The position numbers were made by a program, and so were the translations under genes. This document shows, piece after piece, positions 51,896-62,359 of a stretch of 64,000 nucleotides of DNA. The notes under the pieces were generated by a model that saw only the letters and a list, made by a program, of their open reading frames with translations, had not been told where the DNA came from and searched no databases. Each line of letters begins with the position of its first letter. The first letter of the stretch is position 1. This DNA is from a bacterium (GTDB lineage Bacteria > JAAXHH01): NCBI GenBank assembly GCA_965262815.1, contig OZ253560.1:1397514-1461513 (forward strand), written 5' to 3'.

Positions 51896-52336
51896 TCACT
51901 GTCCATACTTGATCATCGTCAAACTGGTACCTTTTTCCGATACGTCGAACTCTACTTCGTCCATGAGAGCTTTGATCATCAAGATCCCTCGGCCATTCTC
52001 CTTGAGCAGATTGTCCGGGTTGCGCGGGTCCGGAAGGGATTCGGGATCGAAGCCACAACCACAGTCGCAGATGTGTATCCGGAATTCGGTCGAACTGCAG
52101 TTGCAGGTGATGGTGACCTGCTTGGATTCGTCGCACTTGTTTCCGTGAAGTATCGCGTTTTTAACCGCTTCGTTCACGGCAACCATGATGTCGCCGCGGA
52201 TTGCCTGGTCGTAGCCGATCCGCGCAGTCAGATCCTCTATACAGCGATCCACTTCCGCTGTCAGGTCGGGATTGCTGGGAATCGTAAGTTCCAGCGTTAC
52301 GCCGTTTCCGGCTGAGTCCTGTTGCCTCTCGACCAT
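51896..52336 (-). CDS. rsbW: RsbW-like anti-sigma factor/HATPase
   Basis: EAVKNAILHGN, D.GCGFD, GRGILMI..LMD. Confidence 0.85.
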   Translation of the reverse strand: MVERQQDSAGNGVTLELTIPSNPDLTAEVDRCIEDLTARIGYDQAIRGDIMVAVNEAVKNAILHGNKCDESKQVTITCNCSSTEFRIHICDCGCGFDPESLPDPRNPDNLLKENGRGILMIKALMDEVEFDVSEKGTSLTMIKYGQ

Positions 52337-53023
52337 GTAGGACGCTCCATGAGGCCGCCACAAGTAATGTCGGTGAACGACCAGTATCCACCCCGGGACA
52401 GGACGCGTCCCGGTACACGGTATCTACATTGCAGATTAAATAAAAGTATGGAGTTGGAGATACCGTGTCAAGTACGGGGAAGGGGATGATGCGGCGACGC
52501 GACTATATCGCTGCGTTATGCTTTTTATGATCCCCCACCCCCATATTTCGTTGTTTCGATACGAGTCACAGGAGTGCAGTGGAGTCCTCCGTTCCATTTC
52601 ATACTCTATAACCATAGGTCGTGCCGTCAATACAACGGGTTCGGATATCTGTGATCTTATGCCCAAGGGGATTTAACCTATAGCAGGCGATCATATTAGC
52701 CGTTAATGTTATTGCCTTTGGCCCACGGTGCGTTTTGCTGCCTTCGCTAAAGTATTCAGTTTACGAAATCTGGCACAACCACTACTTTACGTTTTATCGT
52801 CCATATGATCTTCCAAAACAACTACTTGTTTGAGCAACATCCCCGATTTGTCAAACCCTCGAATGGTTTCATCAAGCGGTATGGGGTCTATTATGACTGA
52901 AGTCATTCCTTACAGGTGAATTGAACGGATGAAATCTGCAGAATCGGACGCCCACTATCGATGCAATTTAAAAAGCGTCGAGGGTCGTATCAGTAAAGCT
53001 AAGGTTGTGGAGGAGTGTGGGCC

Positions 53024-54166
53024 ATGATCAGATCGGGTAACAGACTTTTGATAGTGTTTCTTGTCTGCAGCTTTGTGTTTTTCGCGGTGGCATTGATTGT
53101 GGAGGAGTTCGCGTTATTTGATTCCGACGTGGATGTGCAGCAAAATGGCACATCAGGCGGGGCGTTTGGAATAGAGGATGCAGCAGAAAGCCTGGCATCC
53201 GCTTCGGCCACGGCGAGCGGGGACCAGGTCACGCTCTCGAGCCAGCAGTTCCAACTCGTTTCCACGGCGTTGTCGCCATTCACCAATGTGCCAGGAAAGC
53301 CACGGTTCGCCCTCGATCTGGTCAACGTGGCTCTCGAACGTGTGGGGATCACTGCCACCACGGTAATCGTGGACGAGGCCAGTCTGACGCTTGGTCTTCT
53401 GAGCGGAAAGTTCGACGGAAGCGTGTCACTCTCGATGTATGCGGAGCAAGGACGCGCGCTGGTTTACTCGCAGCCGTATCTCGAGAACAGATTGATCCTC
53501 GTCGGGCGGCAGGGCAGCGACGTGTCTGCGACCTCACTGGCAGACCTCACCGGCATGCGGGTCGCCCTCGTCGCCGGATACGCGTACGGTGAATCGGTCG
53601 AGTTGACGGACGGACCGATCTACGTTGACTCGGACAGCGAAGAGGACAGCGTCTCAAGACTCCTCAACGGCGATGTAGACTACACACTGATGGACGACTT
53701 AGTCATACAGTACCTGGTCAGCAACCACGAAGAAGAAGCTCGAACACGTCTGGCGATCGGTTCGACGCCGCTGCTCACAAGTTCGATACACTTCGCCGTC
53801 CGCCGATCGCTTTCGGATGCCGATTCGATCATCTCGCGGTTCAACGACGAACTGCGCGGCATGATTGTCGACCAAACCTACCATCGCCTGCTCCATCTCG
53901 ACTGGATTCGAACGGATGTCGACAGCGACGGTCGCACGGAGTACGTGCCTCACGATGATCGGCCAGGACCGCAACCGCCAGAGCGTTCTTATGAACTTTT
54001 CGTTTCGGGCGGTCCGCCTGAGGAATCCGGTACGATGCAGCGCTATTACTTCGGAGGCAACATCTACGAAGGGTGGCCGGCCGTACCCGGGCGTTACAAA
54101 GCCCCGGACTCCAGCAGACCCGGACCGCGTCTGCGCACAGTCAATCTCTTCAACTTCACGTGGTAA
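53024..54166 (+). CDS. Family 3 substrate-binding protein with N-terminal anchor
   Basis: YSQPYLENRL, VAGYAYG, LLNGDVDY; C-terminal DVDSDG motif. Confidence 0.75.
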   Translation: MIRSGNRLLIVFLVCSFVFFAVALIVEEFALFDSDVDVQQNGTSGGAFGIEDAAESLASASATASGDQVTLSSQQFQLVSTALSPFTNVPGKPRFALDLVNVALERVGITATTVIVDEASLTLGLLSGKFDGSVSLSMYAEQGRALVYSQPYLENRLILVGRQGSDVSATSLADLTGMRVALVAGYAYGESVELTDGPIYVDSDSEEDSVSRLLNGDVDYTLMDDLVIQYLVSNHEEEARTRLAIGSTPLLTSSIHFAVRRSLSDADSIISRFNDELRGMIVDQTYHRLLHLDWIRTDVDSDGRTEYVPHDDRPGPQPPERSYELFVSGGPPEESGTMQRYYFGGNIYEGWPAVPGRYKAPDSSRPGPRLRTVNLFNFTW

Positions 54167-54358
54167 CAGGTACCGATTCAATGCGCTTTTTGTTACGTGG
54201 TCCTACAGAAGGATCCAGACTCAGGCTACCGTCGCGAGTCGTCAACGGATAGTGGAAACCGGGGTGGAGACGCTCGCTGTGAAATCAGGAAATTCGAGGA
54301 CACCCAGGCACTGTATTAGCCTGGGCCCGTAGCGTGGGGTATTTTGAAAGGAGCTGAT

Positions 54359-55267
54359 ATGCTCGACCATATTGTCGTCCGACTCGTGGTTCATTATTTC
54401 GCCTCATTCCTTTTATTCGGGGCCCTGTGGGAGTTGCTTCCAGGTTTCTTTCTCGAACTTCAAGTGGCTGAGAGGATTGAATCAAGCTCCCTTTCTGCTA
54501 TGAATTTTGAACAATCCGAGGCCGATTCGGGACTGACCCAGGTTTTTGTGCCCGTGACGATGTCGTTGCTGTTTTCGTTTCTCTTTGCCCTGCCCGTGGT
54601 CTGGGTCTATCGCTGGACTCGGCCCCGAAAGAAATACAGTCAAGCCTTTGCCCAGACCCTGCTCGTCGTGCCTATTGCGATTGCCCTCGTCGTGTTTCTC
54701 GTAAAGGACAGTATCGCCCTCGCCTTCAGTATCGCCGGCATTGTCGCCGCGGTTCGCTTCCGCACGTCGTTGAGCGAACCTATGGATGCCACCTATATGT
54801 TCATCGTAATCGGTATCGGATTGGCTGCCGGGATCCAGTACAGTTCAGTGGCGATCCTGGCATCGGTGGCTTTCAACGCCGTCGTGCTTGTCGTCTGGCG
54901 CATGGACTGGGGAGCAGAGCCCGCGGTCCTATCCGGATTCAGGCTGGTGCATTCGGGAAATGCGGGCTCGTCGCCGGGCGTGACCGACGCCCAGACGGGT
55001 AAAAAGCCCAAACCGTTTAACGCCAGCCTCAGGATCCATACGTCGCAGACCGGTGCAGCACAGAAAGCCGCCGAAGCGCTCCTTCCGACCTTTGCTGCGC
55101 GCTGGCAGTTCGCGGGAATCGTAGATCAGAAATTCGAAGATTCGATTGTCGAGTTTGACGTGAGGCTGAAGAAAAAGACGGATCCGGACACGTTCACCGC
55201 AGAGCTTGAAAAGATCACCGAGGGTCATACCGGTAAAGTAGAATTGGAAGAGCGACCTCAGCCTTGA
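54359..55267 (+). CDS. DUF4956 membrane protein
   Basis: SIALAFSIAGIVAAVRFR, D..Y.F..IGIGLAAG. Confidence 0.85.
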   Translation: MLDHIVVRLVVHYFASFLLFGALWELLPGFFLELQVAERIESSSLSAMNFEQSEADSGLTQVFVPVTMSLLFSFLFALPVVWVYRWTRPRKKYSQAFAQTLLVVPIAIALVVFLVKDSIALAFSIAGIVAAVRFRTSLSEPMDATYMFIVIGIGLAAGIQYSSVAILASVAFNAVVLVVWRMDWGAEPAVLSGFRLVHSGNAGSSPGVTDAQTGKKPKPFNASLRIHTSQTGAAQKAAEALLPTFAARWQFAGIVDQKFEDSIVEFDVRLKKKTDPDTFTAELEKITEGHTGKVELEERPQP

Positions 55268-55280
55268 GGAGATATCGAAT

Positions 55281-56309
55281 ATGAGCACCTCGGGCAATAG
55301 ACTACTGACGGTGTTTCTGTTCTTCAGCATGTTGTTTTTTGCGGTGGCATGGTTCACGCAGAAAGATCCGGCGATAGATCCGGATGTGGATATGCAGCAC
55401 AATGACGCATCAGTCGGCGTGTCCGCTATGGAGACCGCGGCGAGTGACTCCGATGTGAAAGCTGAGGCCGAAGCCACCGCCACCCCGGCATCTGCTTCCG
55501 CTTCAATCCAAGAGCGCGGGGACGATCTCACTCTCGGGAGTTACGCTCTCGAAGAACCGGCTCGGCATTTGAAGTTACCGAAGCGGTTGCGGGAGATTTC
55601 CGGCCTGGCCATGCTCCCGGAGAACCGATTCCTCGCTCACGATGACGAACGAGGCGTGGTAGTAGAAATCGATTATCGCGATGGTTCAATTGTAAAGGAC
55701 TTCGCACTCGGCAATAGGCGCGGATCGGTCGCCGACGACTTCGAAGGTATCGCCGCGGCAGATGGTAGGCTATACCTTGTCTCCAGTTCAGGACGGCTAT
55801 ACGAGTTCGGAGAAGGCGACGACGGAGCAACCGTCCTCTACAGTCGGTATGAAACCGAAATTGGACGAGATTACGAGATAGAGGGCCTCGCCTATAACCC
55901 GGACCAACGAGCACTGTTGCTCATCAGCAAAAATCCAAGAAGATCGGGGCAGGAGGATCTGATAGCGATTTATCTCTGGTCTATCGATACCAGGCGGCTC
56001 ATCGAGGATGGCCGTATCCTCATAGAGGCCTCCGCGCTCGCACCCCGTATTGACCGCAAAAGATTCCAACCATCGGGCATAGAACGGCACCCGGTATCAG
56101 GAAACTATTTTGTCGTGGCGGCCCGCCAGCGCGCCGTTGCTGAGATCACCCCACAGGGTACAGTCCTGGCCGTAACCGAACTGTCGACCAGCCAGCATCG
56201 ACAGGCCGAGGGCATTACCTTTGCTTCGGATAATACGATGGTCATAGCCGACGAAGGGGCGGGAAAACGCGCGACCCTGAGTTTCTACCCCGTTGAGAAG
56301 GTACGATAA
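55281..56309 (+). CDS. SdiA-regulated-like (YjiK-like) beta-propeller protein
   Basis: LREISGL, HDDE, DFEGIA, EIEGLAY, FQPSGI, QAEGITF, IADEG. Confidence 0.8.
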   Translation: MSTSGNRLLTVFLFFSMLFFAVAWFTQKDPAIDPDVDMQHNDASVGVSAMETAASDSDVKAEAEATATPASASASIQERGDDLTLGSYALEEPARHLKLPKRLREISGLAMLPENRFLAHDDERGVVVEIDYRDGSIVKDFALGNRRGSVADDFEGIAAADGRLYLVSSSGRLYEFGEGDDGATVLYSRYETEIGRDYEIEGLAYNPDQRALLLISKNPRRSGQEDLIAIYLWSIDTRRLIEDGRILIEASALAPRIDRKRFQPSGIERHPVSGNYFVVAARQRAVAEITPQGTVLAVTELSTSQHRQAEGITFASDNTMVIADEGAGKRATLSFYPVEKVR

Positions 56310-56387
56310 TTGCGAGGATCGAGAGCTGCCCGTCAGATGTTGCATGGACTGTCGGGAATCCCAGGACGGATCAGGCGTCGCGTTGGT

Positions 56388-57575
56388 ATGCAAAGATTAA
56401 GAGCGGTGTGCCACCGGGTCTTCCGACCGGGAATCACGCTTCTCCTGGCGCTGACTGTAGTCCTTGCGGGTTGCCATGCAGGTCGTCTACGCGGGGAGAA
56501 CTACGACGCCAGCGGGGATCCTTTCATCCGGTGGGACCCCCCGGCGGAATCGGTCGCTGCCGACTCTATAGACACGGCCCGGGTCGCCTATAGGGTCATC
56601 CTGGCTGGAGACACCGGGGAGCCGGTTCCGCAGGATCCCACGCTTGCTGCAATCGGGCGCTGGGCGATTCCGCAGGACCGTGCCGCCGTCGTGCTGCTGG
56701 GCGACAACCTCTACCCTTCGGGGCTAAAGGCGGATGACCGCGCCAGGGGCGAAGCCATTCTGCGCCAGCAACTCGAGGTGACCTCGGCACTTCGGATTTT
56801 CGTGCCAGGCAACCACGACTGGGGTTCCTCTCCGCGAGACTGGACGGGACAACGTGTCATCGCACAGCAGGAGTTCGTACTGGCCTGGCCGGAGGGCGAC
56901 GTGGATTTCCTGCCCCGTGATGGATGTCCAGGTCCGGCCGTCCGCGAGTTGCTACGGCCCGGGGACGGGATGGAGCGGGGAATCGCGGTCGTGGCCATCG
57001 ACTGGATGCCCTGGTTCTCTGAGGTTGCCGACAACAGCACGTGCCCGAAGGGGGATTTTCAGGCACGGATTGATGATGTTTTCGCGGACCTTAAAAAGCA
57101 TTATGTGATCGTGGCGAGTCATTATCCGTTGCGCTCGGCTGGTGCCCGAGCCGACTTGGGTCGCGGGATGATCATCGACAGCTTAACTAACCTGTATCAT
57201 ATGCTGCGTCCTCGATCTCATCTCAATCTGTTCCACCCGGAATACATTCCCCTCGCAGGACAGGTTAAAAACGCGCTCGAAAGACACAGGCCACTCGTCT
57301 ATGCTGCAGGACATGATCACAGCCTGCAACTATTCGAGGCAGACGAAGTCGCCCGGATGCACATCGTGAGCGGGGCTGGTTCCACGGGCAAAGTGTCGCG
57401 CGTCACCGACCTGGCGAGTACGATCTTCGCCCACGCGATTCCAGGTTTCGTAGTGCTGGATTTCGTTACCTTCGACGGAATCGATACCCCCGTCGTGCGC
57501 GTCGTGAGAACAGGTCAGGAAACACCCGTGTTCCAGATGCGCATTCCGCCGCAGGATGACTGGAATGGCAGATAG
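56388..57575 (+). CDS. Calcineurin-like metallophosphoesterase, predicted lipoprotein
   Basis: LAGC lipobox; GDTG, GDNLY, GNHD, HYP, GHDH. Confidence 0.88.
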   Translation: MQRLRAVCHRVFRPGITLLLALTVVLAGCHAGRLRGENYDASGDPFIRWDPPAESVAADSIDTARVAYRVILAGDTGEPVPQDPTLAAIGRWAIPQDRAAVVLLGDNLYPSGLKADDRARGEAILRQQLEVTSALRIFVPGNHDWGSSPRDWTGQRVIAQQEFVLAWPEGDVDFLPRDGCPGPAVRELLRPGDGMERGIAVVAIDWMPWFSEVADNSTCPKGDFQARIDDVFADLKKHYVIVASHYPLRSAGARADLGRGMIIDSLTNLYHMLRPRSHLNLFHPEYIPLAGQVKNALERHRPLVYAAGHDHSLQLFEADEVARMHIVSGAGSTGKVSRVTDLASTIFAHAIPGFVVLDFVTFDGIDTPVVRVVRTGQETPVFQMRIPPQDDWNGR

Positions 57576-57647
57576 CCCGCCAACCTTGAACGTCTCAACA
57601 TCTATCCTCGTCGATCATATCCCGGTTGGGAAACCACGCAGTCACCA

Positions 57648-60299
57648 CTAGAACATGAACCCGACGAACAGGTACAGGTCGGTCTTGTCCTTACCGTCCA
57701 TCATCGCTACGCTCATCGTCGCCCGCCGTTCGGCAAAGGAGACCCAGAGCCCACCGCCTTTGCCGACATGCCAGTCATCAGCCTCCGACGGGTCGTCCAC
57801 GAAGAATACCCTCCCCGCATCAACGGCAGCGAACGCGCCGAGTTCACCGGGAATCAGGAACTTGATTTGGGTCAGCCGAAACCGAAGCTCGCCGTTCCCG
57901 TAAATTGCGGAATCCCCAGCGAAGCGGTACTTTCGAAATCCCCGCATGTTGCCGGAGCCTCCGATGGCGGCCGCTTCGTGGAACGGGTACTCACCGTGGA
58001 CGGTCTTGCCGCCCACGCGCAGGGCGAGGGTAGGGGAGGTGGGAACGTTCGCCGAAAGGTATGTAGATGCCTCGCCGGCAACGTGGCCGAATGTCGATTC
58101 GACATCCCACAACTCAGGGTAGAGTTCGCCTGCGAGCCACAGCCGGACTCCCCGTTGGGCATGGCCCGGATTGTCGCGGGTGTCAAAAACGAGTTCCCCA
58201 CTTACGCCCACCTGTCCAAAGGCTTCCGTCCCGTACAGCGGAGATTCATAGGTGGCAATAAACTTCTCCTCGTGTCCGTCCAAAGAGGTGTTGGTGATCT
58301 TGACGACGGGCCCGCCCGATAGATTCCATTTCCCATGCGACGAACCGGAACCCGTGAATGAAAGCGCGGGCGCGAGAAGGAACTGTGCCTGATCCACCTC
58401 GTAAAACGTCTCGTCCCGCGTGAGATCAACGTCGTTTCCGAAACCGTTGAAGCGAACCATGTTGATGCCGGAGTATCCCACCTCGAGCTGACCGTCGAGG
58501 GACCGAAGCATATGCCGGAACGTCCCGGAATAGGAAACGAAGGGCTTAGTTCCGCCCCGTGAGGCAACTCCGACGTTTATGGCATGCCGCGAGGCAAAAG
58601 GGTTCTTTCGATAGCCAAAGTTCTCCCTGGTGTAGCGCAGCCCGGCGTAGACACCGAGGTCAGAAGTGTATTGGACAACCGGCTGCACGCCCGAGTTCCC
58701 GCCCCAGTCAAGTTTGTACACGTCCTGCGAAATCGTACTTTCGTTTTTCGGACGGTTGTACGGCCGCTCGTTAATATGCGCCCGTCTGTCGTCGAAGCGG
58801 TTCCGGCCGCGCGCGTCGTAAAACCGCGTCATCCTCCGTCCGGCCCGGGACCGGTTCGCGTACGCGTCATCGCCTCCGCCGCCGTCCACGTGGACCCTGA
58901 TCCTGGCTCGCCCACCGAGGACAGCGATTTCATCGTCCCCACCGTGCATGTAGATCCTGACTTCCCTGGTCTCGTGGGGATACAGCGTTCGGCGAAAATA
59001 CGGGGCACTTTGAGTTCCCGCCATGCTGATTCGAACCTCCAACGCACCGTCTTCACGGTGTTCCAGCTCGAGGTATTCGTCCTCGTCCGTTCCCCTGATC
59101 TCGACTTCTCTGCTGATCAGTCCGTAGTACCGGGCGGCGAACTCGTCGAGTAGGGCGCGACGCGACTTCAGCGTCCGGGTGAGAAAGTCCCCCACCTGTC
59201 TGTAGTAAGGTCCTGGAATACGTCGGACGGTATCATCGATCACCGAGTCCGGCAATTCGGACTGTACCGTGGCGACCATGTCCTCCCACGCGCTCCACTC
59301 CAGTTCGGCCAGCAACCTGCGGTCCAGCTCCCAGCCGGTGCGGGAGAGTCCCCGGTGGTTCGGATACTTCTCCTGGAAGCGGACGAACTTGGACTCGACA
59401 CGACGCACCAGTTTCATGAGTTGGCCATCCAGATCGACAAAGGCCTTGTCTCTATCTTCGGGAATGGGCAGCCATGTATAGCAATCTCCAACTGGGAACC
59501 TCGCCCAGCGCCACTGTCCCCGATGCCGGTCCGAGTCTCCTATGAGAAAGTCGATGAGCCGCGCCTTGAGATAGGCTCGCGCGTCCACGCGTTCGCAGGG
59601 GGATTCTTCGAGACCCTCGTACAATCTTTCCGTACCGCTCACCTGCCGGGATCCGGCAAACCCTGGTTCGTTGTCCGCGGCTTCGGAAGGATGCTCCTGC
59701 AAGGTCCCGATCAGCCCGGCATACTCCTCACGAAAAGATCCCAATCTCGGGTCGTCGGGTATCACCACCAGCCGGTGCGGCGCATGCAGGACTCCCGTCG
59801 CCGCCATCAGGGCATCCACCACCAGGCCCGCCGCCGGCAGATGGGCGCTCACGAGATCCTGAATCACATCCTCGACGACGGTATCCTTAAGTTCCTCCAT
59901 CAACCGTTTGGAAGGATCTTTGTCAATGGAGCGCACCGTGTAGCGGCGGCCATCCTCGCCCATAAAATGCAGCGAAATGGACTGACCGGCGCCTCCCGGA
60001 CGCATGGGTGACAAACCGCCGCCTACCGTATCGAGATCGAGGACCGGCACCTCGACAGGCGTCGTCCACAACTGGCGGTAGTTTTTGCCATAGATCCACT
60101 CACCATATCTGTTTGCCTTGAATCGAGCGCCGGGTACGAGGGTATGCGTCGTATCGCCCTTCTCCGGTGTAGCGCGGTGAATCAGCCGGCCGGCCTGTGC
60201 CGCTGCCGCATCAGCGCCTCCAAGAGACAGGACGACGACTAGCAGAGTGGTAGTCCAGTAACGCCGCCAGGGACGGATGAAACGCTCGTTCTGGATCAC
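57648..60299 (-). CDS. Omp85/BamA-TamA-type barrel protein with N-terminal atypical kinase-like domain
   Basis: Signal peptide; GGAGQS, VRSIDK, DFLIGDSDRHRGQW, PEDRDKAF; C-terminal MRGF..RFAG, DAGRV, terminal F. Confidence 0.75.
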   Translation of the reverse strand: MIQNERFIRPWRRYWTTTLLVVVLSLGGADAAAAQAGRLIHRATPEKGDTTHTLVPGARFKANRYGEWIYGKNYRQLWTTPVEVPVLDLDTVGGGLSPMRPGGAGQSISLHFMGEDGRRYTVRSIDKDPSKRLMEELKDTVVEDVIQDLVSAHLPAAGLVVDALMAATGVLHAPHRLVVIPDDPRLGSFREEYAGLIGTLQEHPSEAADNEPGFAGSRQVSGTERLYEGLEESPCERVDARAYLKARLIDFLIGDSDRHRGQWRWARFPVGDCYTWLPIPEDRDKAFVDLDGQLMKLVRRVESKFVRFQEKYPNHRGLSRTGWELDRRLLAELEWSAWEDMVATVQSELPDSVIDDTVRRIPGPYYRQVGDFLTRTLKSRRALLDEFAARYYGLISREVEIRGTDEDEYLELEHREDGALEVRISMAGTQSAPYFRRTLYPHETREVRIYMHGGDDEIAVLGGRARIRVHVDGGGGDDAYANRSRAGRRMTRFYDARGRNRFDDRRAHINERPYNRPKNESTISQDVYKLDWGGNSGVQPVVQYTSDLGVYAGLRYTRENFGYRKNPFASRHAINVGVASRGGTKPFVSYSGTFRHMLRSLDGQLEVGYSGINMVRFNGFGNDVDLTRDETFYEVDQAQFLLAPALSFTGSGSSHGKWNLSGGPVVKITNTSLDGHEEKFIATYESPLYGTEAFGQVGVSGELVFDTRDNPGHAQRGVRLWLAGELYPELWDVESTFGHVAGEASTYLSANVPTSPTLALRVGGKTVHGEYPFHEAAAIGGSGNMRGFRKYRFAGDSAIYGNGELRFRLTQIKFLIPGELGAFAAVDAGRVFFVDDPSEADDWHVGKGGGLWVSFAERRATMSVAMMDGKDKTDLYLFVGFMF

Positions 60300-60538
60300 T
60301 CTTCAATCTCCTGTTCAATAATTCGAAATGGCTGAACCCGCTCGCTGAAGATGAGGTACGGGGTCCCGGTATGAGTCGCTACATACAACACAAGAGATAA
60401 CAGGTATGCTTGACCGGGTCAACTCCAATCAGATTACCGATCATCTTGTGGAGCATCGCGTTAGCAGTCAGTTCGAATAGGTTCCTATACTGATGGAACC
60501 AGAACTGTAAAAACCTGAGATTCTAGGGACGTAGAGAC

Positions 60539-62359
60539 TTACGGGGTCCTGTTGAATCTGCGTTCGATCTCCTCAAGAGGCATACGCACCAAGACGGGTC
60601 GACCCCGGGGGGTCGCATAGGGCATTTCAGTGGCGAAAAGATCGTTGACGAGCACATTCATCTCCCGCTGTGAAAGCGAATCGCCTTTCCTGATTCCCGC
60701 GTGGGAGGAAAAAGTGAGCGCGATACGTTCTTCCGCCTTGAAGTCCTGCGCGTGCAGATCCTGCAGGTTTTCGATCATACGCTGAAACAGTGTATCTACA
60801 CCCTGGTTGTTCGCCATACAGGGAACCGCGTCTACGACCACGGTCCGTTCGCCGAACAGTTTCACACTGAATCCCAGCTTGCCGAATAGATCGAAATGTT
60901 CCTGGACGAGGGCGAACTGTGGTATCATGAGATCCATGGTCACCGGAAACAACAACTGCTGGGAGGGAGCGGATTCGTGATCTATCGTTTTTAACGCCCG
61001 TTCGAACAGCACACGCTCATGGGCGGCATGCTGGTCGATGAGTACAAATCCACCCTTGATCTGGGCGAAGATGTAGGCATTGTGCAGCTGCCAGAGTGGA
61101 ACCATCTCGCCGTCGGGATCCTCACGAACGGTTCCATGCTGCTCTTCATTATTCCCTTCCCGTACCGTGTCGCCCGGGGTATAGGTCCAGTCCACCGTAG
61201 TAGCGTCGGCACCCGGGCGCTTGAAATCGAATAGACCGGTTTGCGTTCTGCGCTCCATGGTCGATTCAGGACCGGGACCGGGTACGTCCCCGTTTCCAGG
61301 CGCCGTGGCCGACGTCATGGCGGATATGCCCTGCGTATCCGTCTCAAAAACGGGTACCACATCCGAATTCTGCAACGCCATCCGAATGGCTCGCAACAGC
61401 GTCTTATATACCATGGATTCGTCGGAAAACCGGATCTCACGCTTCGTGGGATGGACGTTGACGTCCACCTGGTCGAGGTCGATGGTCAGGAAAATGATCG
61501 ATACGGGATATCGCTCCCTGGGGAGGATGGATCCGTACCCTTCGAACACGGCATGATTGAGCGCACGGCTGGATACCGGCCGCAGGTTGATGAAGAGGTG
61601 CTGGTGGGTACGGGAAACCCTGGCGGAGTCGGGACGGCTGATGAATCCGTGTATTTTGACGAGTTCGTCGTCGAAAGTAACCGGTATCATTTGATTCATC
61701 AGCGTGTTGCCCATGACGGCCTGGGCACGGGTATACGCGTTCGACACGGCCGGGAGCGACAGGGTTTCCCTTCCGTCTACCTTCAGGGAAAAGGCGATTT
61801 CGGGATACGCCATCGCGGTAGTCGTAAATACGGAAACGATATGGCGCGTTTCCGTGCCGGTTGTCCGCAGGAATTTCCGCCGCGCAGGCACGTTGTAGAA
61901 CAACTGGGATATGGAGATTGTCGTACCCTGCGCTCGCCCGGCGTCCGTCACCTGGGGGGCCGTCCCGCCATCGATGCGAATCCGGGTACCTGCCGCTTCG
62001 CCCGAGATATTCGTCGTCAGGTCCACCCTGGCCACCGAGGCGATGCTGGACAACGCCTCGCCCCGAAATCCTAATGTACCGATGCGAAAGAGGTCTGCTT
62101 CGTCGTCGATTTTGCTGGTCGCGTGCCGTTCGAAGGCCAGCACCGCGTCCTGCCGGGGCATGCCCCTGCCGTTGTCCATCACACGTATGAGTTGTTTGCC
62201 GCCCGACTTGATCTCTACTGAAATACGCCCGCCACCGGCATCGATGGCATTTTCGACCAGTTCCTTGACGACGGAGGAAGGACGTTCGATCACCTCGCCC
62301 GCGGCAATCTTGTTGGCGAGGTTTTCGGGTAGCACTTTGATTTGATCAGGCATGGACAC
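60539..62359 (-). CDS. mutL: DNA mismatch repair protein MutL
   Basis: KIAAGEVIERP, GFRGEAL, DVNVHP.K, DQHAAHER. Confidence 0.97.
   Translation of the reverse strand: MSMPDQIKVLPENLANKIAAGEVIERPSSVVKELVENAIDAGGGRISVEIKSGGKQLIRVMDNGRGMPRQDAVLAFERHATSKIDDEADLFRIGTLGFRGEALSSIASVARVDLTTNISGEAAGTRIRIDGGTAPQVTDAGRAQGTTISISQLFYNVPARRKFLRTTGTETRHIVSVFTTTAMAYPEIAFSLKVDGRETLSLPAVSNAYTRAQAVMGNTLMNQMIPVTFDDELVKIHGFISRPDSARVSRTHQHLFINLRPVSSRALNHAVFEGYGSILPRERYPVSIIFLTIDLDQVDVNVHPTKREIRFSDESMVYKTLLRAIRMALQNSDVVPVFETDTQGISAMTSATAPGNGDVPGPGPESTMERRTQTGLFDFKRPGADATTVDWTYTPGDTVREGNNEEQHGTVREDPDGEMVPLWQLHNAYIFAQIKGGFVLIDQHAAHERVLFERALKTIDHESAPSQQLLFPVTMDLMIPQFALVQEHFDLFGKLGFSVKLFGERTVVVDAVPCMANNQGVDTLFQRMIENLQDLHAQDFKAEERIALTFSSHAGIRKGDSLSQREMNVLVNDLFATEMPYATPRGRPVLVRMPLEEIERRFNRTP

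Follow-up and report, generated by a model that had tools for sequence, protein, structure and literature searches.

The closest systems described so far come from two directions. On the side of the outer membrane, Heinz and Lithgow (2014; PMC4104836) set apart a 'Metallo' subfamily of Omp85 proteins, in which a PF00149 domain, there termed a metalloprotease, is joined to an Omp85 barrel; where that paper describes the group, it mentions neither a kinase-like domain nor partners or a function. PlpD, in turn, is a patatin-like lipase joined to an Omp85 barrel (PMC11116518). On the other side stand the VTC-DUF4956-CotH genes, which a preprint reports as neighbours of Gram-positive pel operons (bioRxiv 10.1101/768473), and which appear as a run of VTC, membrane protein and CotH in a locus table of Clostridium perfringens (PMC2879425). 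This triad itself is without an established function.

The locus considered here lies in a window of 64,000 nucleotides, the whole stretch of DNA analysed, from a bacterial contig (OZ253560.1). As in PlpD, its barrel appears to carry an enzyme domain instead of an assembly-factor role, but the lipase of PlpD gives way to a kinase fold and a phosphoesterase (PMC11116518). The 'Metallo' proteins have the architecture of fused proteins found in Bacteroidota, whereas the window encodes phosphoesterase and barrel as two genes; by the scheme of Heinz and Lithgow (PMC4104836), its 883-aa protein, without PF00149, would count as a barrel with an unknown N-terminus. What is new is the clean insertion of the genes, the kinase fold of residues 40-396 of the barrel protein, its fused and split forms, and the recurring DUF4956, propeller, phosphoesterase and PPK1 neighbours. 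Literature searches found no publication characterising this module, in keeping with the original prediction of an uncharacterized system.

Table 1. Features of the block and its flanks (positions in the window)
Feature	Position	Strand	Size	Basis
RsbW-type flanking gene	51896-52363	-		Pfam HATPase_c_2, E 6.7e-30
Whole accessory block between rsbW-like gene and mutL	52484..60534	.	~8.05 kb	blastn
AT-rich non-coding leader of block	52484..53014	.		composition, ORF list
Membrane-anchored solute-binding-protein (SBP)-like gene, lineage-specific	53015-54166	+	383 aa	SBP_bac_3 below cut-off, PDB match
DUF4956 inner-membrane protein, 120-aa soluble C-terminal part	54344-55267	+	307 aa	PF16316
Membrane-anchored beta-propeller, SdiA-regulated/phytase-like	55281-56309	+	342 aa	PF13449 and PF06977 sequence matches
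Purple-acid-phosphatase-type metallophosphoesterase lipoprotein	56310-57575	+	421 aa	PF00149, motifs, lipobox
Omp85 barrel protein with kinase-like domain	57648-60299	-	883 aa	ORF
16-stranded Omp85 barrel, residues 534-883	57651..58700	-		model, Foldseek, PF01103
Beta-rich linker domain, residues 398-494	58818..59108	-		full-length model, conservation
Protein-kinase-like domain, residues 40-396	59112..60182	-		AlphaFold model, fold search
Promoter-like conserved piece upstream of barrel gene	60386..60429	-		nucleotide conservation
MutL flanking gene	60539-62359	-		Pfam

ORF calling over positions 53015-60299 sets four plus-strand envelope genes head-on against the 883-aa Omp85 gene (Table 1), and ORFs and Pfam agree with the predicted arrangement, in which four co-oriented genes converge on the barrel gene between rsbW and mutL. 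In three module-less genomes of the genus, blastn homology ends at 52483 (52479 in one) and restarts at 60533-60537, and at the empty site both flanks are just 6-14 bases apart. The junctions of the block are bridged by contigs from the public runs X5, X6, X10 and X11; X10 and X11 additionally hold a contig that fuses 52480 to 60546, with 8065 bases skipped, and filled and empty forms of the site are both found as contigs within the same runs. The five-gene block is a clean 8.05-kb insertion, strain-variable and missing from three close relatives. The AT-richer flanks that had been described stand out only on the left, where G+C falls to 44.4% (52500-52999), all other 500-base bins between 48000 and 64000 having 53-67%; on the right (60000-60499) the drop to 55% is mild. 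The leader has no ORF of at least 80 aa wholly inside it in the ORF list, and gave no match in a search of Rfam; the other genus loci lack a conserved counterpart ahead of their SBP-like gene. Preceding the barrel gene, a piece of 32-44 bases is 84-91% identical in five of nine genus loci; judged by eye, it offers a TTGACC hexamer, a 17-base gap and TATCTC, a combination unlisted by the consensus scan.

Do these genes belong together? The five occur in identical order in 9/9 other genus loci that hold the barrel gene, and their grouping is not chance. Among 80 related loci, the partners beside the barrel gene are DUF4956 (37), the propeller (35) and the phosphoesterase (30), and 17 loci, many of them short, are without any partner family; such locus counts overstate the evidence, because relatives share ancestry. 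Gene order and orientation vary across the labelled phyla. The SBP-like gene is present in all nine genus loci, and beyond the genus the stand-alone gene appears only in L028, L029, L034 and L036; it is a local, lineage-specific addition outside the conserved module. Of the five-gene module first proposed, four members recur, and the SBP-like gene, restricted to the closest relatives, L034 and L036, drops out.

Fusion and fission tell of the same association. The fused form is seen in P0258, and a search with a 1335-aa protein that unites Metallophos, the kinase-like domain and Omp85 returned, among the best 120 proteins listed, 117 of 1210-1338 aa; the sources assign such fused proteins to Spirosoma, Larkinella, Pedobacter, Flammeovirgaceae and other Bacteroidota. 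One Bacteroidota MAG has a three-gene split of phosphoesterase, kinase-like domain and barrel. Since the three parts are commonly one protein in Bacteroidota, the window holds a split version. The original prediction had described just such a fused metallophosphoesterase-barrel protein, which proves common, and had read the locus as its split counterpart; it depended on co-occurrence or fusion in other genomes, and the genes do co-occur, in varied order and orientation, and do fuse.

The full-length model of the 883-aa protein has 16 barrel strands between residues 534 and 880, and Foldseek matches the barrel to TamA and BamA (E about 2e-9 to 1e-8), with FhaC too among the matches. Pfam assigns PF01103 Omp85 (E 6.9e-8, 32.8 bits against a cut-off of 24) in a match confined to residues 687-838, and also ShlB/FhaC (E 1.6e-5); the score for NCBIfam Omp85_fam, 77 bits, is below the 200-bit cut-off. 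The closest sequence matches are BamA-type, and BamA/TamA is the name that the sources give to homologues. In loop 6, 67 sequences share R786 and G787 without exception and F788 almost throughout, matching what we take to be the Omp85 signature, (V/I)RG(F/Y). On the model, then, this is an Omp85 superfamily barrel. Residues 398-494, with nine short strands (pLDDT about 76-89) and with G473-G476 and D478 invariant, take up the position of the POTRA domains in Omp85 proteins. The account given with PlpD (PMC11116518) assigns Omp85 proteins one POTRA domain or more, whereas Pfam detects none in the 883-aa protein at E up to 0.01.

The N-terminal part had been predicted to be kinase-like, and its fold bears this out. 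The AlphaFold model of residues 40-396 (pLDDT 94.9, pTM 0.92) finds CotH at the top of VIA-align (5jda; Z 15.1, rmsd 4.0, 249 aligned), followed by PI4KIIalpha (Z 14.5 for 4pla and a further 14.4, both in the tie range of CotH) and CtkA (3akj; Z 13.4). Z is at least 8 for 37 PDB representatives, the first 42 rows are kinases without exception, and all 16 Foldseek matches at E <=0.001 are kinases as well (CtkA, E 2.8e-5). With CotH (5jda), PI4KIIalpha (4pla, 4hnd), Helicobacter CtkA (3akj) and HipA/HipT the domain has the fold in common over ~220-255 aligned residues (Z 11-15), but it differs from these atypical kinases in its 9-16% identity, in giving no Pfam or profile-profile match, and in its predicted periplasmic location. 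By sequence the domain matches neither the CotH family nor the PI3/PI4-kinase family: no Pfam family is matched at E up to 0.01, PF08757 (CotH) and PF00454 (PI3/PI4-kinase) included; hhalign of 35 N-domains against 24 CotH proteins gives a probability of 0.4%, that is, no profile relation; the Atlas CotH cluster scores a mere 0.79; and a profile search of PDB sequences with the barrel protein returns Omp85 proteins only and no kinase. On the strength of the model, the N-terminal part is a protein-kinase-like domain, unannotated before and belonging to a family that Pfam does not model. With no CotH match in the window's genome, it is left as the sole kinase of CotH-like fold there.

Invariant in this domain are R123, K127, D250, D255, D257, R258, H259, Q262, D282, R283 and D284, and with them the motifs D-x-D-R-H-x-x-Q and D-R-D. 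By motif comparison, these appear akin to the motifs that PI3/PI4-type kinases have in the catalytic loop and for metal binding; the loops of those kinases presumably have Asn at the position of the Gln. By sequence, the candidate active-site set would be D255, D257, R258, H259 and Q262, with D282 and D284 and with R123 and K127, and the domain may be catalytic.

The phosphoesterase is a Metallophos protein by Pfam (PF00149; E 6.2e-8, 33.7 bits, cut-off 21.5). Across 25 sequences its GDxG, GDxxY, GNHD, H and GHxH motifs are all invariant (G100, D101, G103, G131, D132, Y135, G167, N168, H169, D170, H271, H335, H337), and the lipobox Cys55 is nearly so. All five motifs of what we assume to be the purple-acid-phosphatase signature (DxG, GDxxY, GNH(D/E), VxxH, GHxH) are matched, and on these motifs the enzyme appears catalytically competent. 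Mammalian type 5 enzymes (1ute, 7ov8) have the five metal-ligand motifs, GDxxY included, in common with it; the block protein, however, is a ~420-aa bacterial lipoprotein with long insertions, and purple acid phosphatase type 5, its best PDB match by sequence and the source of its sole matches below E 0.1, is matched very weakly (E 0.016).

The propeller matches Phytase-like PF13449 (35.6 bits, cut-off 27.6) and SdiA-regulated PF06977 (34.9 bits, cut-off 21), each at E 1.2e-8. DUF4956 is assigned by PF16316 (E 1.6e-14, 54.4 bits, above the 30.6 cut-off); the block copy is the only one in its genome, and across 28 genus genomes the family and an intact barrel gene are present in exactly the same 13. 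Among named Atlas clusters, the C-terminal part of DUF4956 lies closest to MgtC_SapB_C (0.80, a lead only), and a homologue gives a weak Pfam match to MgtC (E 5e-4); DUF4956 may, on these leads, have a regulatory role instead of serving as a conduit. The SBP-like protein falls short of the SBP_bac_3 cut-off (PF00497; E 4e-5, 23.8 bits against 26.4), and its residues 97-277 match PDB amino-acid-binding proteins (E 2.7e-7), so that it is at most a divergent relative of family-3 solute-binding proteins.

A link to polyphosphate comes from the neighbourhood. In 26 of the 80 related loci PPK1 is no more than 10 kb away, and PAP2 phosphatases occur in nine; by arithmetic, a single-copy gene would fall within 10 kb of another by chance in ~0.5% of 4-Mb genomes. 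The PPK1-linked loci span five labelled groups and are scattered over a quick tree, the window's own clade included (L035, L043), and their PPK1 bears all four PPK1 Pfam domains. In the nine genus loci PPK1 is unlinked to the module. The window's genome (97.8% complete) has a single PPK1, 1.7 Mb away, and gives no match to VTC or CotH, so that PPK1 is the sole polyphosphate synthase of these families there. One Ignavibacterium genome holds a barrel-gene homologue (KB), PPK1, HD/PycTM, PAP2, HlyD, VTC and DUF4956 inside ~20 kb, with VTC-DUF4956 ~10 kb from the homologue, and in 14 control genomes DUF4956 and VTC were matched in the same three. The Bacteroidota genome L109 has a VTC-DUF4956-CotH-CotH operon; its CotH kinases carry T9SS secretion tails and therefore act outside the cytoplasm too. 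The expected company of DUF4956 with VTC and CotH is thus seen in this operon, as it is in the preprint's account of Gram-positives (bioRxiv 10.1101/768473), and the idea of phosphate or polyphosphate handling, a proposed function, gains support from the independent PPK1 linkage.

The likeness to the triad lies in a DUF4956 membrane protein, a kinase of the same fold class predicted to be extracytoplasmic, and a polyphosphate-making enzyme. The module differs in that this enzyme is PPK1, not VTC, and is not linked in the window's genome; that its kinase-like domain falls outside CotH by sequence and sits on an Omp85 barrel; and that a phosphoesterase and a propeller are added. As there is no sequence-profile relation to CotH, the analogy rests on fold and context.

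Envelope genes for a kinase fold and a phosphatase, whose relatives often stand beside polyphosphate-making genes, make it probable that the module serves phosphate transfer in the cell envelope, as a system so far uncharacterised. A more specific reading, to which we give somewhat less than even confidence, is one self-contained envelope module running a polyphosphate-fed phosphoryl-transfer cycle in the periplasm or outer membrane. Its core would be the outer-membrane barrel, with the kinase-like domain on the periplasmic side replacing the POTRA domains; the phosphatase lipoprotein, part of the same polypeptide in Bacteroidota, would be its fixed partner, inner-membrane DUF4956 and the anchored propeller frequent further ones, and the SBP-like protein a local addition. 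PPK1, or VTC in some lineages, would make polyphosphate in the cytoplasm; DUF4956 would let it, or its phosphoryl groups, pass to the periplasm; the kinase-like domain would phosphorylate an envelope acceptor from this ATP-independent donor; and the phosphoesterase would reverse the mark or trim the polymer. ATP is unavailable in the periplasm. Against this cycle speak the missing linkage of PPK1 to the module in the window's genome and in the nine genus loci, the 17 related loci without partners, the lack of a profile relation to CotH, the regulatory leads for DUF4956, and the fact that kinases of protein-kinase-like fold are not known to use polyphosphate. A wider idea, which we consider unlikely, is that across Bacteroidota, Gemmatimonadota and Ignavibacteria extracytoplasmic kinase-fold enzymes are driven by exported polyphosphate and not by ATP, with DUF4956 as export route and the phosphoesterase as eraser. 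If true, DUF4956 would be the long-sought bacterial inner-membrane route for polyphosphate from PPK1 or VTC, and the users would be the Omp85-tethered kinase-like domain and the secreted CotH kinases of a sister system.

Could the genes be chance or shared-ancestry neighbours with no common function? Simple inheritance could explain the conservation of the block within the genus, but order and orientation vary across labelled phyla, domain fusion and fission are both seen, the fusion data already contradicting this explanation, and the block is gained and lost as a whole; it is hardly credible. Alternatively, the barrel might be a translocator of the two-partner-secretion (TPS) or PlpD type that carries either the phosphoesterase or its own kinase-like domain to the cell surface, to act on external targets. 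Its ShlB/FhaC and FhaC matches and a phosphoesterase that adjoins or is fused to it would agree with this, and Heinz and Lithgow raise such export for their 'Metallo' group (PMC4104836). The proposal is nevertheless highly doubtful: Pfam finds neither a POTRA nor a TPS-type secretion domain, the barrel's nearest sequence matches are BamA-type, the phosphoesterase has a lipobox instead of a TPS signal, and the DUF4956 and PPK1 links are left unaccounted for.

Remodelling of lipid or lipopolysaccharide head groups would give the kinase-like domain a different target: placed at the inner face of the outer membrane, a lipid-kinase-like domain and the phosphoesterase would add and remove phosphate on membrane lipids. 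The near tie of the lipid kinase PI4KIIalpha with CotH, the PAP2 genes, often lipid phosphatases, near nine loci, the automatic label LpxH that one source gives to a fused homologue, and the analogy of PlpD as an Omp85 barrel with a lipid-active enzyme (PMC11116518) all lean this way. We regard it as quite unlikely, as no lipid A or phospholipid biosynthesis genes turned up among the recurrent neighbours, the PPK1, VTC and DUF4956 linkage is not accounted for, and a periplasmic phosphoryl donor would still be required. Phosphate scavenging, in which phosphatase, propeller and SBP-like protein would release phosphate at the envelope from its organic or condensed forms, the barrel would anchor or admit substrate, the kinase-like domain would only bind and PPK1 would store, is somewhat unlikely. 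It draws on the five purple-acid-phosphatase motifs, the Phytase-like match, the PAP2 genes, a weak match of the SBP-like protein to Phosphonate-bd (E 0.0028), a PPK1 linkage compatible with co-regulation under phosphate stress, and the strain-variable carriage of the block, which is common in nutrient-acquisition islands. Yet it offers no role for DUF4956 or for the catalytic-type residues that are strictly conserved in the kinase-like domain and leaves the likeness to VTC, DUF4956 and secreted CotH unexplained; no phosphate transporter gene was found in the block, and conservation of the module does not extend to the SBP-like protein. It nevertheless counts against the polyphosphate-fed cycle that purple acid phosphatases, phytase-like propellers, PAP2 phosphatases and PPK1 jointly fit plain phosphate scavenging too.

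The locus that separates the rsbW-like gene from mutL represents, in two-gene form, a widespread and uncharacterised machine made up of an Omp85 barrel and a phosphoesterase. This machine includes an unannotated kinase-fold domain, and gene context ties it to polyphosphate. The original prediction of an envelope gene set at this position was confirmed by open reading frames and Pfam matches, as four closely packed genes on one strand converge on a single gene on the other. The gaps between the last three plus-strand genes are only 13 and 0 bases. By eye, the SBP-like and propeller proteins each have one N-terminal hydrophobic anchor, and five or six hydrophobic stretches can be made out in the DUF4956 protein. 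The lipobox of the phosphoesterase reads L-A-G-C; the 883-aa protein starts with a signal peptide that ends in an Ala-rich site. It is very probable that the five genes form a functional unit.

Features of the inserted block and its two neighbours (window positions)
Feature	Position	Strand	Match or remark
RsbW-type anti-sigma kinase gene, left neighbour	51896-52363	-	
SBP-like protein	53015-54166	+	SBP_bac_3, E 4e-5, below the Pfam cut-off
N-terminal segment of SBP-like protein	53015-53260		similar to that of the propeller
DUF4956 membrane protein	54344-55267	+	E 1.6e-14
C-terminal soluble part of DUF4956 protein	54913-55264		residues 190-307
Propeller	55281-56309	+	Phytase-like and SdiA-regulated, E 1.2e-8 each
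N-terminal segment of propeller	55281-55550		similar to that of the SBP-like protein
Phosphoesterase (Metallophos protein)	56310-57575	+	E 6.2e-8
883-aa protein (barrel gene)	57648-60299	-	sole Pfam match Omp85, residues 687-838
Conserved piece upstream of barrel gene	60386-60429	-	promoter-like pair by eye
mutL, right neighbour	60539-62359	-	

The SBP-like protein and the propeller resemble each other in their first 50-90 residues, a membrane anchor followed by an acidic linker, with 33-47% identity between the two in five of the nine other loci of the genus (tblastn). This common stretch may serve both proteins for docking or targeting. It is also the reason why the SBP profile picked up the propeller; its counts were discarded, and the presence of the SBP-like protein was judged from separate second matches alone. 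Among the loci examined, it was seen as a separate gene only in the nearest relatives and at two loci labelled Latescibacterota. Upstream of the barrel gene, a short piece resembling a -35/-10 pair is 84-91% conserved in five of the nine genus loci, and one locus (L018) has a second occurrence. A consensus scan was uninformative (promoter-like sites, 2 against 3.4 expected; terminator-like sites, 10 against 6.7), and Rfam, searched over 52300-60600 with E up to 1, returned a single snoRNA match at chance level (E 0.5).

The full-length model of the 883-aa protein (pLDDT 70.2) has three parts: a mixed alpha/beta region (residues 40-396), a beta-rich region (398-494), and 16 barrel strands (534-880). 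The barrel resembles TamA and BamA (Foldseek E about 2e-9) and keeps the RGF motif of loop 6; because its number of strands is even, the N-terminal domains should, by Omp85 topology, sit in the periplasm, like POTRA domains. Barrel matches swamped the Foldseek search with the whole protein, and the N-terminal domain was therefore modelled alone. The resulting model of residues 40-400, built on 122 diverse homologues, reached pLDDT 94.9 and pTM 0.92. Its top match in an all-against-representatives structural search is the CotH kinase 5jda (Z 15.1, rmsd 4.0, 249 residues), followed by PI4KIIalpha (Z 14.5 and 14.4), CtkA (13.4), and a bacterial Ser/Thr kinase, ATM and HipA/HipT (about 11-12). Foldseek returned CtkA (E 2.8e-5), PI4KIIalpha (2e-4), HipT (5e-4) and CotH (1.3e-3).

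Sequence methods found no such kinship. Pfam has no match to the kinase-like domain, phmmer against the PDB gave nothing relevant, the family profile run on PDB sequences recovered Omp85 barrels only and no kinase, and an Atlas search led to unnamed clusters only. Membership in the CotH family was tried and rejected, with an hhalign probability of 0.4% against the CotH alignment. The domain is thus a protein-kinase-like family that lacks a Pfam model and stands outside CotH. Across 35 N-terminal domains from at least eight labelled lineages, the residues R123, K127, D250, D255, D257, R258, H259, Q262, R264, W265, D282, R283, D284, D326, D351, R380 and R381 are invariant. In the model, D-x-D-R-H-x-x-Q comes after a long helix and D-R-D after a beta-hairpin, which would match the order of catalytic loop and then metal-binding Asp in such kinases. 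Predicted structure and conservation together show an Omp85 barrel whose N-terminal domain has a kinase fold and keeps residues of catalytic type; the modelled fold is close to certain, and the domain is somewhat more likely to be an active phosphotransferase than an inactive one.

The partner of this protein is a motif-complete, purple-acid-type phosphoesterase, to judge from 25 homologues from the related loci, in which GDxG, GDxxY, GNHD, a lone His and GHxH, the metal ligands of purple acid phosphatases, are invariant, and the lipobox Cys nearly so. Below E 0.1, its PDB sequence matches are limited to purple acid phosphatases of mammals and are weak (E 0.016). When the kinase-like domain was modelled in complex with phosphoesterase residues 56-421, with separate alignments, the score was 0.06 (mark 0.32), which is neutral on binding. 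The two proteins can share one polypeptide: a 1335-aa representative combines Metallophos (69-266), the kinase-like domain (481-918) and then Omp85. When its first 900 residues served as query, 117 of the 120 best listed proteins were of the fused kind, 1210-1338 aa long; they come from Spirosoma, Larkinella, Pedobacter, Adhaeribacter, Catalinimonas, Flammeovirgaceae and others, and are named "metallophosphoesterase" or "BamA/TamA family" in databases. The idea that the window holds a split version of a fused module was thereby borne out. A Bacteroidota MAG even has three consecutive genes, for a kinase-like protein (537 aa, no Pfam match), a Metallophos protein (452 aa) and Omp85 (383 aa). 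Such one-, two- and three-gene arrangements are the classical signature of the parts of a putative single machine. The fused Bacteroidota architecture matches the "Metallo" Omp85 subfamily catalogued in 2014, whose PF00149 domain was taken for a metalloprotease; the relevant passages of that survey do not mention a kinase (PMC4104836). Going by these passages, the family had been catalogued only as a barrel plus a "metallo" domain.

How widespread is it? The kinase-like part has 2938 cluster representatives at E ≤ 0.001 and 1351 at ≤ 1e-30, and the family members mostly measure 815-970 aa. Among the pattern matches listed for contigs from one genome per species, 598 of 600 encode a relative; the best 80 of these 598 are labelled Gemmatimonadota, Latescibacterota, Poribacteria, KSB1, Acidobacteriota, Ignavibacteria, Chlorobium, Bacteroidota and Calditrichaceae. 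In a quick tree of the 35 N-terminal domains, the 9-row clade of the window is well supported, has short branches, and unites the labels Gemmatimonadota, Latescibacterota, Acidobacteriota, KSB1 and Poribacteria. This mixture of five phyla suggests either transfer between lineages or loose, unreliable MAG labels. Several related genomes (loci L082, L088, L033, L035) encode two kinase-barrel paralogues of full length, either in tandem or with a few kb between them, and such pairs sometimes bracket propeller and phosphoesterase genes.

Within the genus of the window, the module behaves as an accessory element. In three genomes of the genus without the barrel gene, the rsbW-like gene adjoins mutL; their flanks share 80-94% DNA identity with the window, and their homology ends at 52483 (52479 in one) and restarts at 60533-60537, so that the window has an extra 8.05 kb. 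The block opens with a 530-base AT-rich leader (44.4% G+C), and no target-site duplication is evident at the junctions. Contigs of four public sequencing runs from four studies span the junctions, so the block is no assembly artefact. In two of these runs, another contig leads straight from 52480 to 60546 without the block, which shows that carriers and non-carriers coexist. One contig of run X5, at a low depth of 3.15, misses one base at position 54623 in the DUF4956 gene; this could be a frameshift variant or a fault of the assembly.

An intact barrel gene is present in 13 of the 28 genomes of the genus, that of the window included, and DUF4956 in exactly the same 13. The five genes keep an identical order in all nine other loci examined. 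In the other genomes of the genus, the block lies at one shared site that is not the site of the window, and the flanks of this shared site map elsewhere in the genome of the window. Three further genomes have decayed copies (G043:C219:6912-7527, G018:C140:1040979-1041152 and G020:C8:1679113-1679319), one split into three frames and two reduced to short remnants with a stop codon; some lineages of the genus are losing the module. It is an envelope gene set inherited together and lost together.

Which genes accompany the barrel elsewhere? Longest-ORF calls with single-linkage clusters fused unrelated proteins, such as a cyclase-TPR protein, with the barrel family, and the counts therefore come from profile searches of 80 loci, with flanks up to 10 kb and many loci shorter. 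DUF4956 was found at 37 of them, the propeller at 35, the phosphoesterase at 30, the polyphosphate kinase PPK1 at 26, a PAP2 phosphatase at nine and an HD-PycTM membrane protein at six, with at least one of the six families at 63; gene order and orientation vary between lineages. Both PPK1 examples that were checked have all four PPK1 Pfam domains. The PPK1-linked loci (other Gemmatimonadota 18/41, Ignavibacteria 4/9, Longimicrobiales 2/7, Bacteroidota 1/2, KSB1 1/1) are scattered across the quick tree and reach into the clade of the window (L035, L043). A run of about 20 kb in one Ignavibacterium genome has genes for cyclase-TPR, propeller, barrel, PPK1, HD-PycTM, PAP2, DPBB, HlyD-like, VTC and DUF4956 proteins. 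The module is thus repeatedly linked to DUF4956 and polyphosphate synthases. The genome of the window has one PPK1, 1.7 Mb away, and one DUF4956, in the block; VTC and CotH have no match in it.

A related triad forms a VTC-DUF4956-CotH-CotH operon in one Bacteroidota genome, which encodes the barrel family as well. Both CotH proteins of the operon end in T9SS sorting domains, so that the kinases of this canonical triad, too, work outside the cytoplasm. In a set of 14 controls, the genomes matched by DUF4956 and by VTC are the same three, Bacteroides thetaiotaomicron, Corynebacterium glutamicum and Methanosarcina acetivorans; CotH matches these and Bacillus subtilis. In the openly accessible full texts searched, nothing was found that pairs CotH with Omp85 or DUF4956 with polyphosphate. 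Passages of earlier reports describe pel operons of Gram-positives with cotH, DUF4956 and a gene for a polyphosphate polymerase next to them, and suggest no more than a regulatory role (10.1101/768473), put DUF4956 next to DUF2490 in a table for B. thetaiotaomicron (PMC10434189), and list VTC, a small membrane protein and CotH consecutively in a Clostridium perfringens locus table (PMC2879425).

A further question is what such a kinase would use as donor. The periplasm lacks ATP, and a kinase-like domain placed there would need another phosphoanhydride. Gene context points to polyphosphate, made by PPK1 or VTC and possibly passed or gated by DUF4956. The phosphoesterase would then take off the phosphate mark or trim the polymer, and the propeller and SBP-like protein would bind or present the substrate. 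The handling of phosphate or polyphosphate, already part of the original prediction, draws support from the PPK1 neighbours; a relation of the module to polyphosphate is a balanced bet, and a polyphosphate-driven periplasmic kinase is unlikely.

Several rivals share this ground. The module might remodel lipid head groups at the outer membrane, a reading favoured by the score of PI4KIIalpha, which lies in the tie range with CotH. It might also be a secretion device, or serve phosphate scavenging; if only the latter is true, the outer-membrane enzyme architecture would still be new, and its physiological meaning ordinary. As for DUF4956, it might act as an MgtC-type regulator instead of a conduit: the nearest named Atlas cluster of its soluble part is MgtC_SapB_C (0.80), and a homologue (L107:6247-6918) has a weak MgtC Pfam match (E 5e-4). 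Both are leads only, and a remote kinship of DUF4956 with MgtC-type membrane proteins is possible.

The module is a concrete and widespread test case for kinase action in a compartment devoid of ATP, and it bears on the role of bacterial VTC-DUF4956-CotH clusters and on whether, and how, bacterial polyphosphate exits the cytoplasm. Cultured genera of the Bacteroidota, Pedobacter and Spirosoma among them, encode the fused kinase-phosphatase form, and the clean presence or absence among close relatives and within the same runs offers natural carrier and non-carrier strains for comparison.

A last point concerns loci from Ignavibacteria and Longimicrobiales, where the neighbours of the barrel gene encode an adenylate/guanylate cyclase-TPR protein and a protein that joins an HD domain to a membrane domain of the Pycsar-effector type (L079:6881-8824, L066:5765-7846 and L079:15420-16667). 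These neighbours hint at nucleotide signalling around the module.
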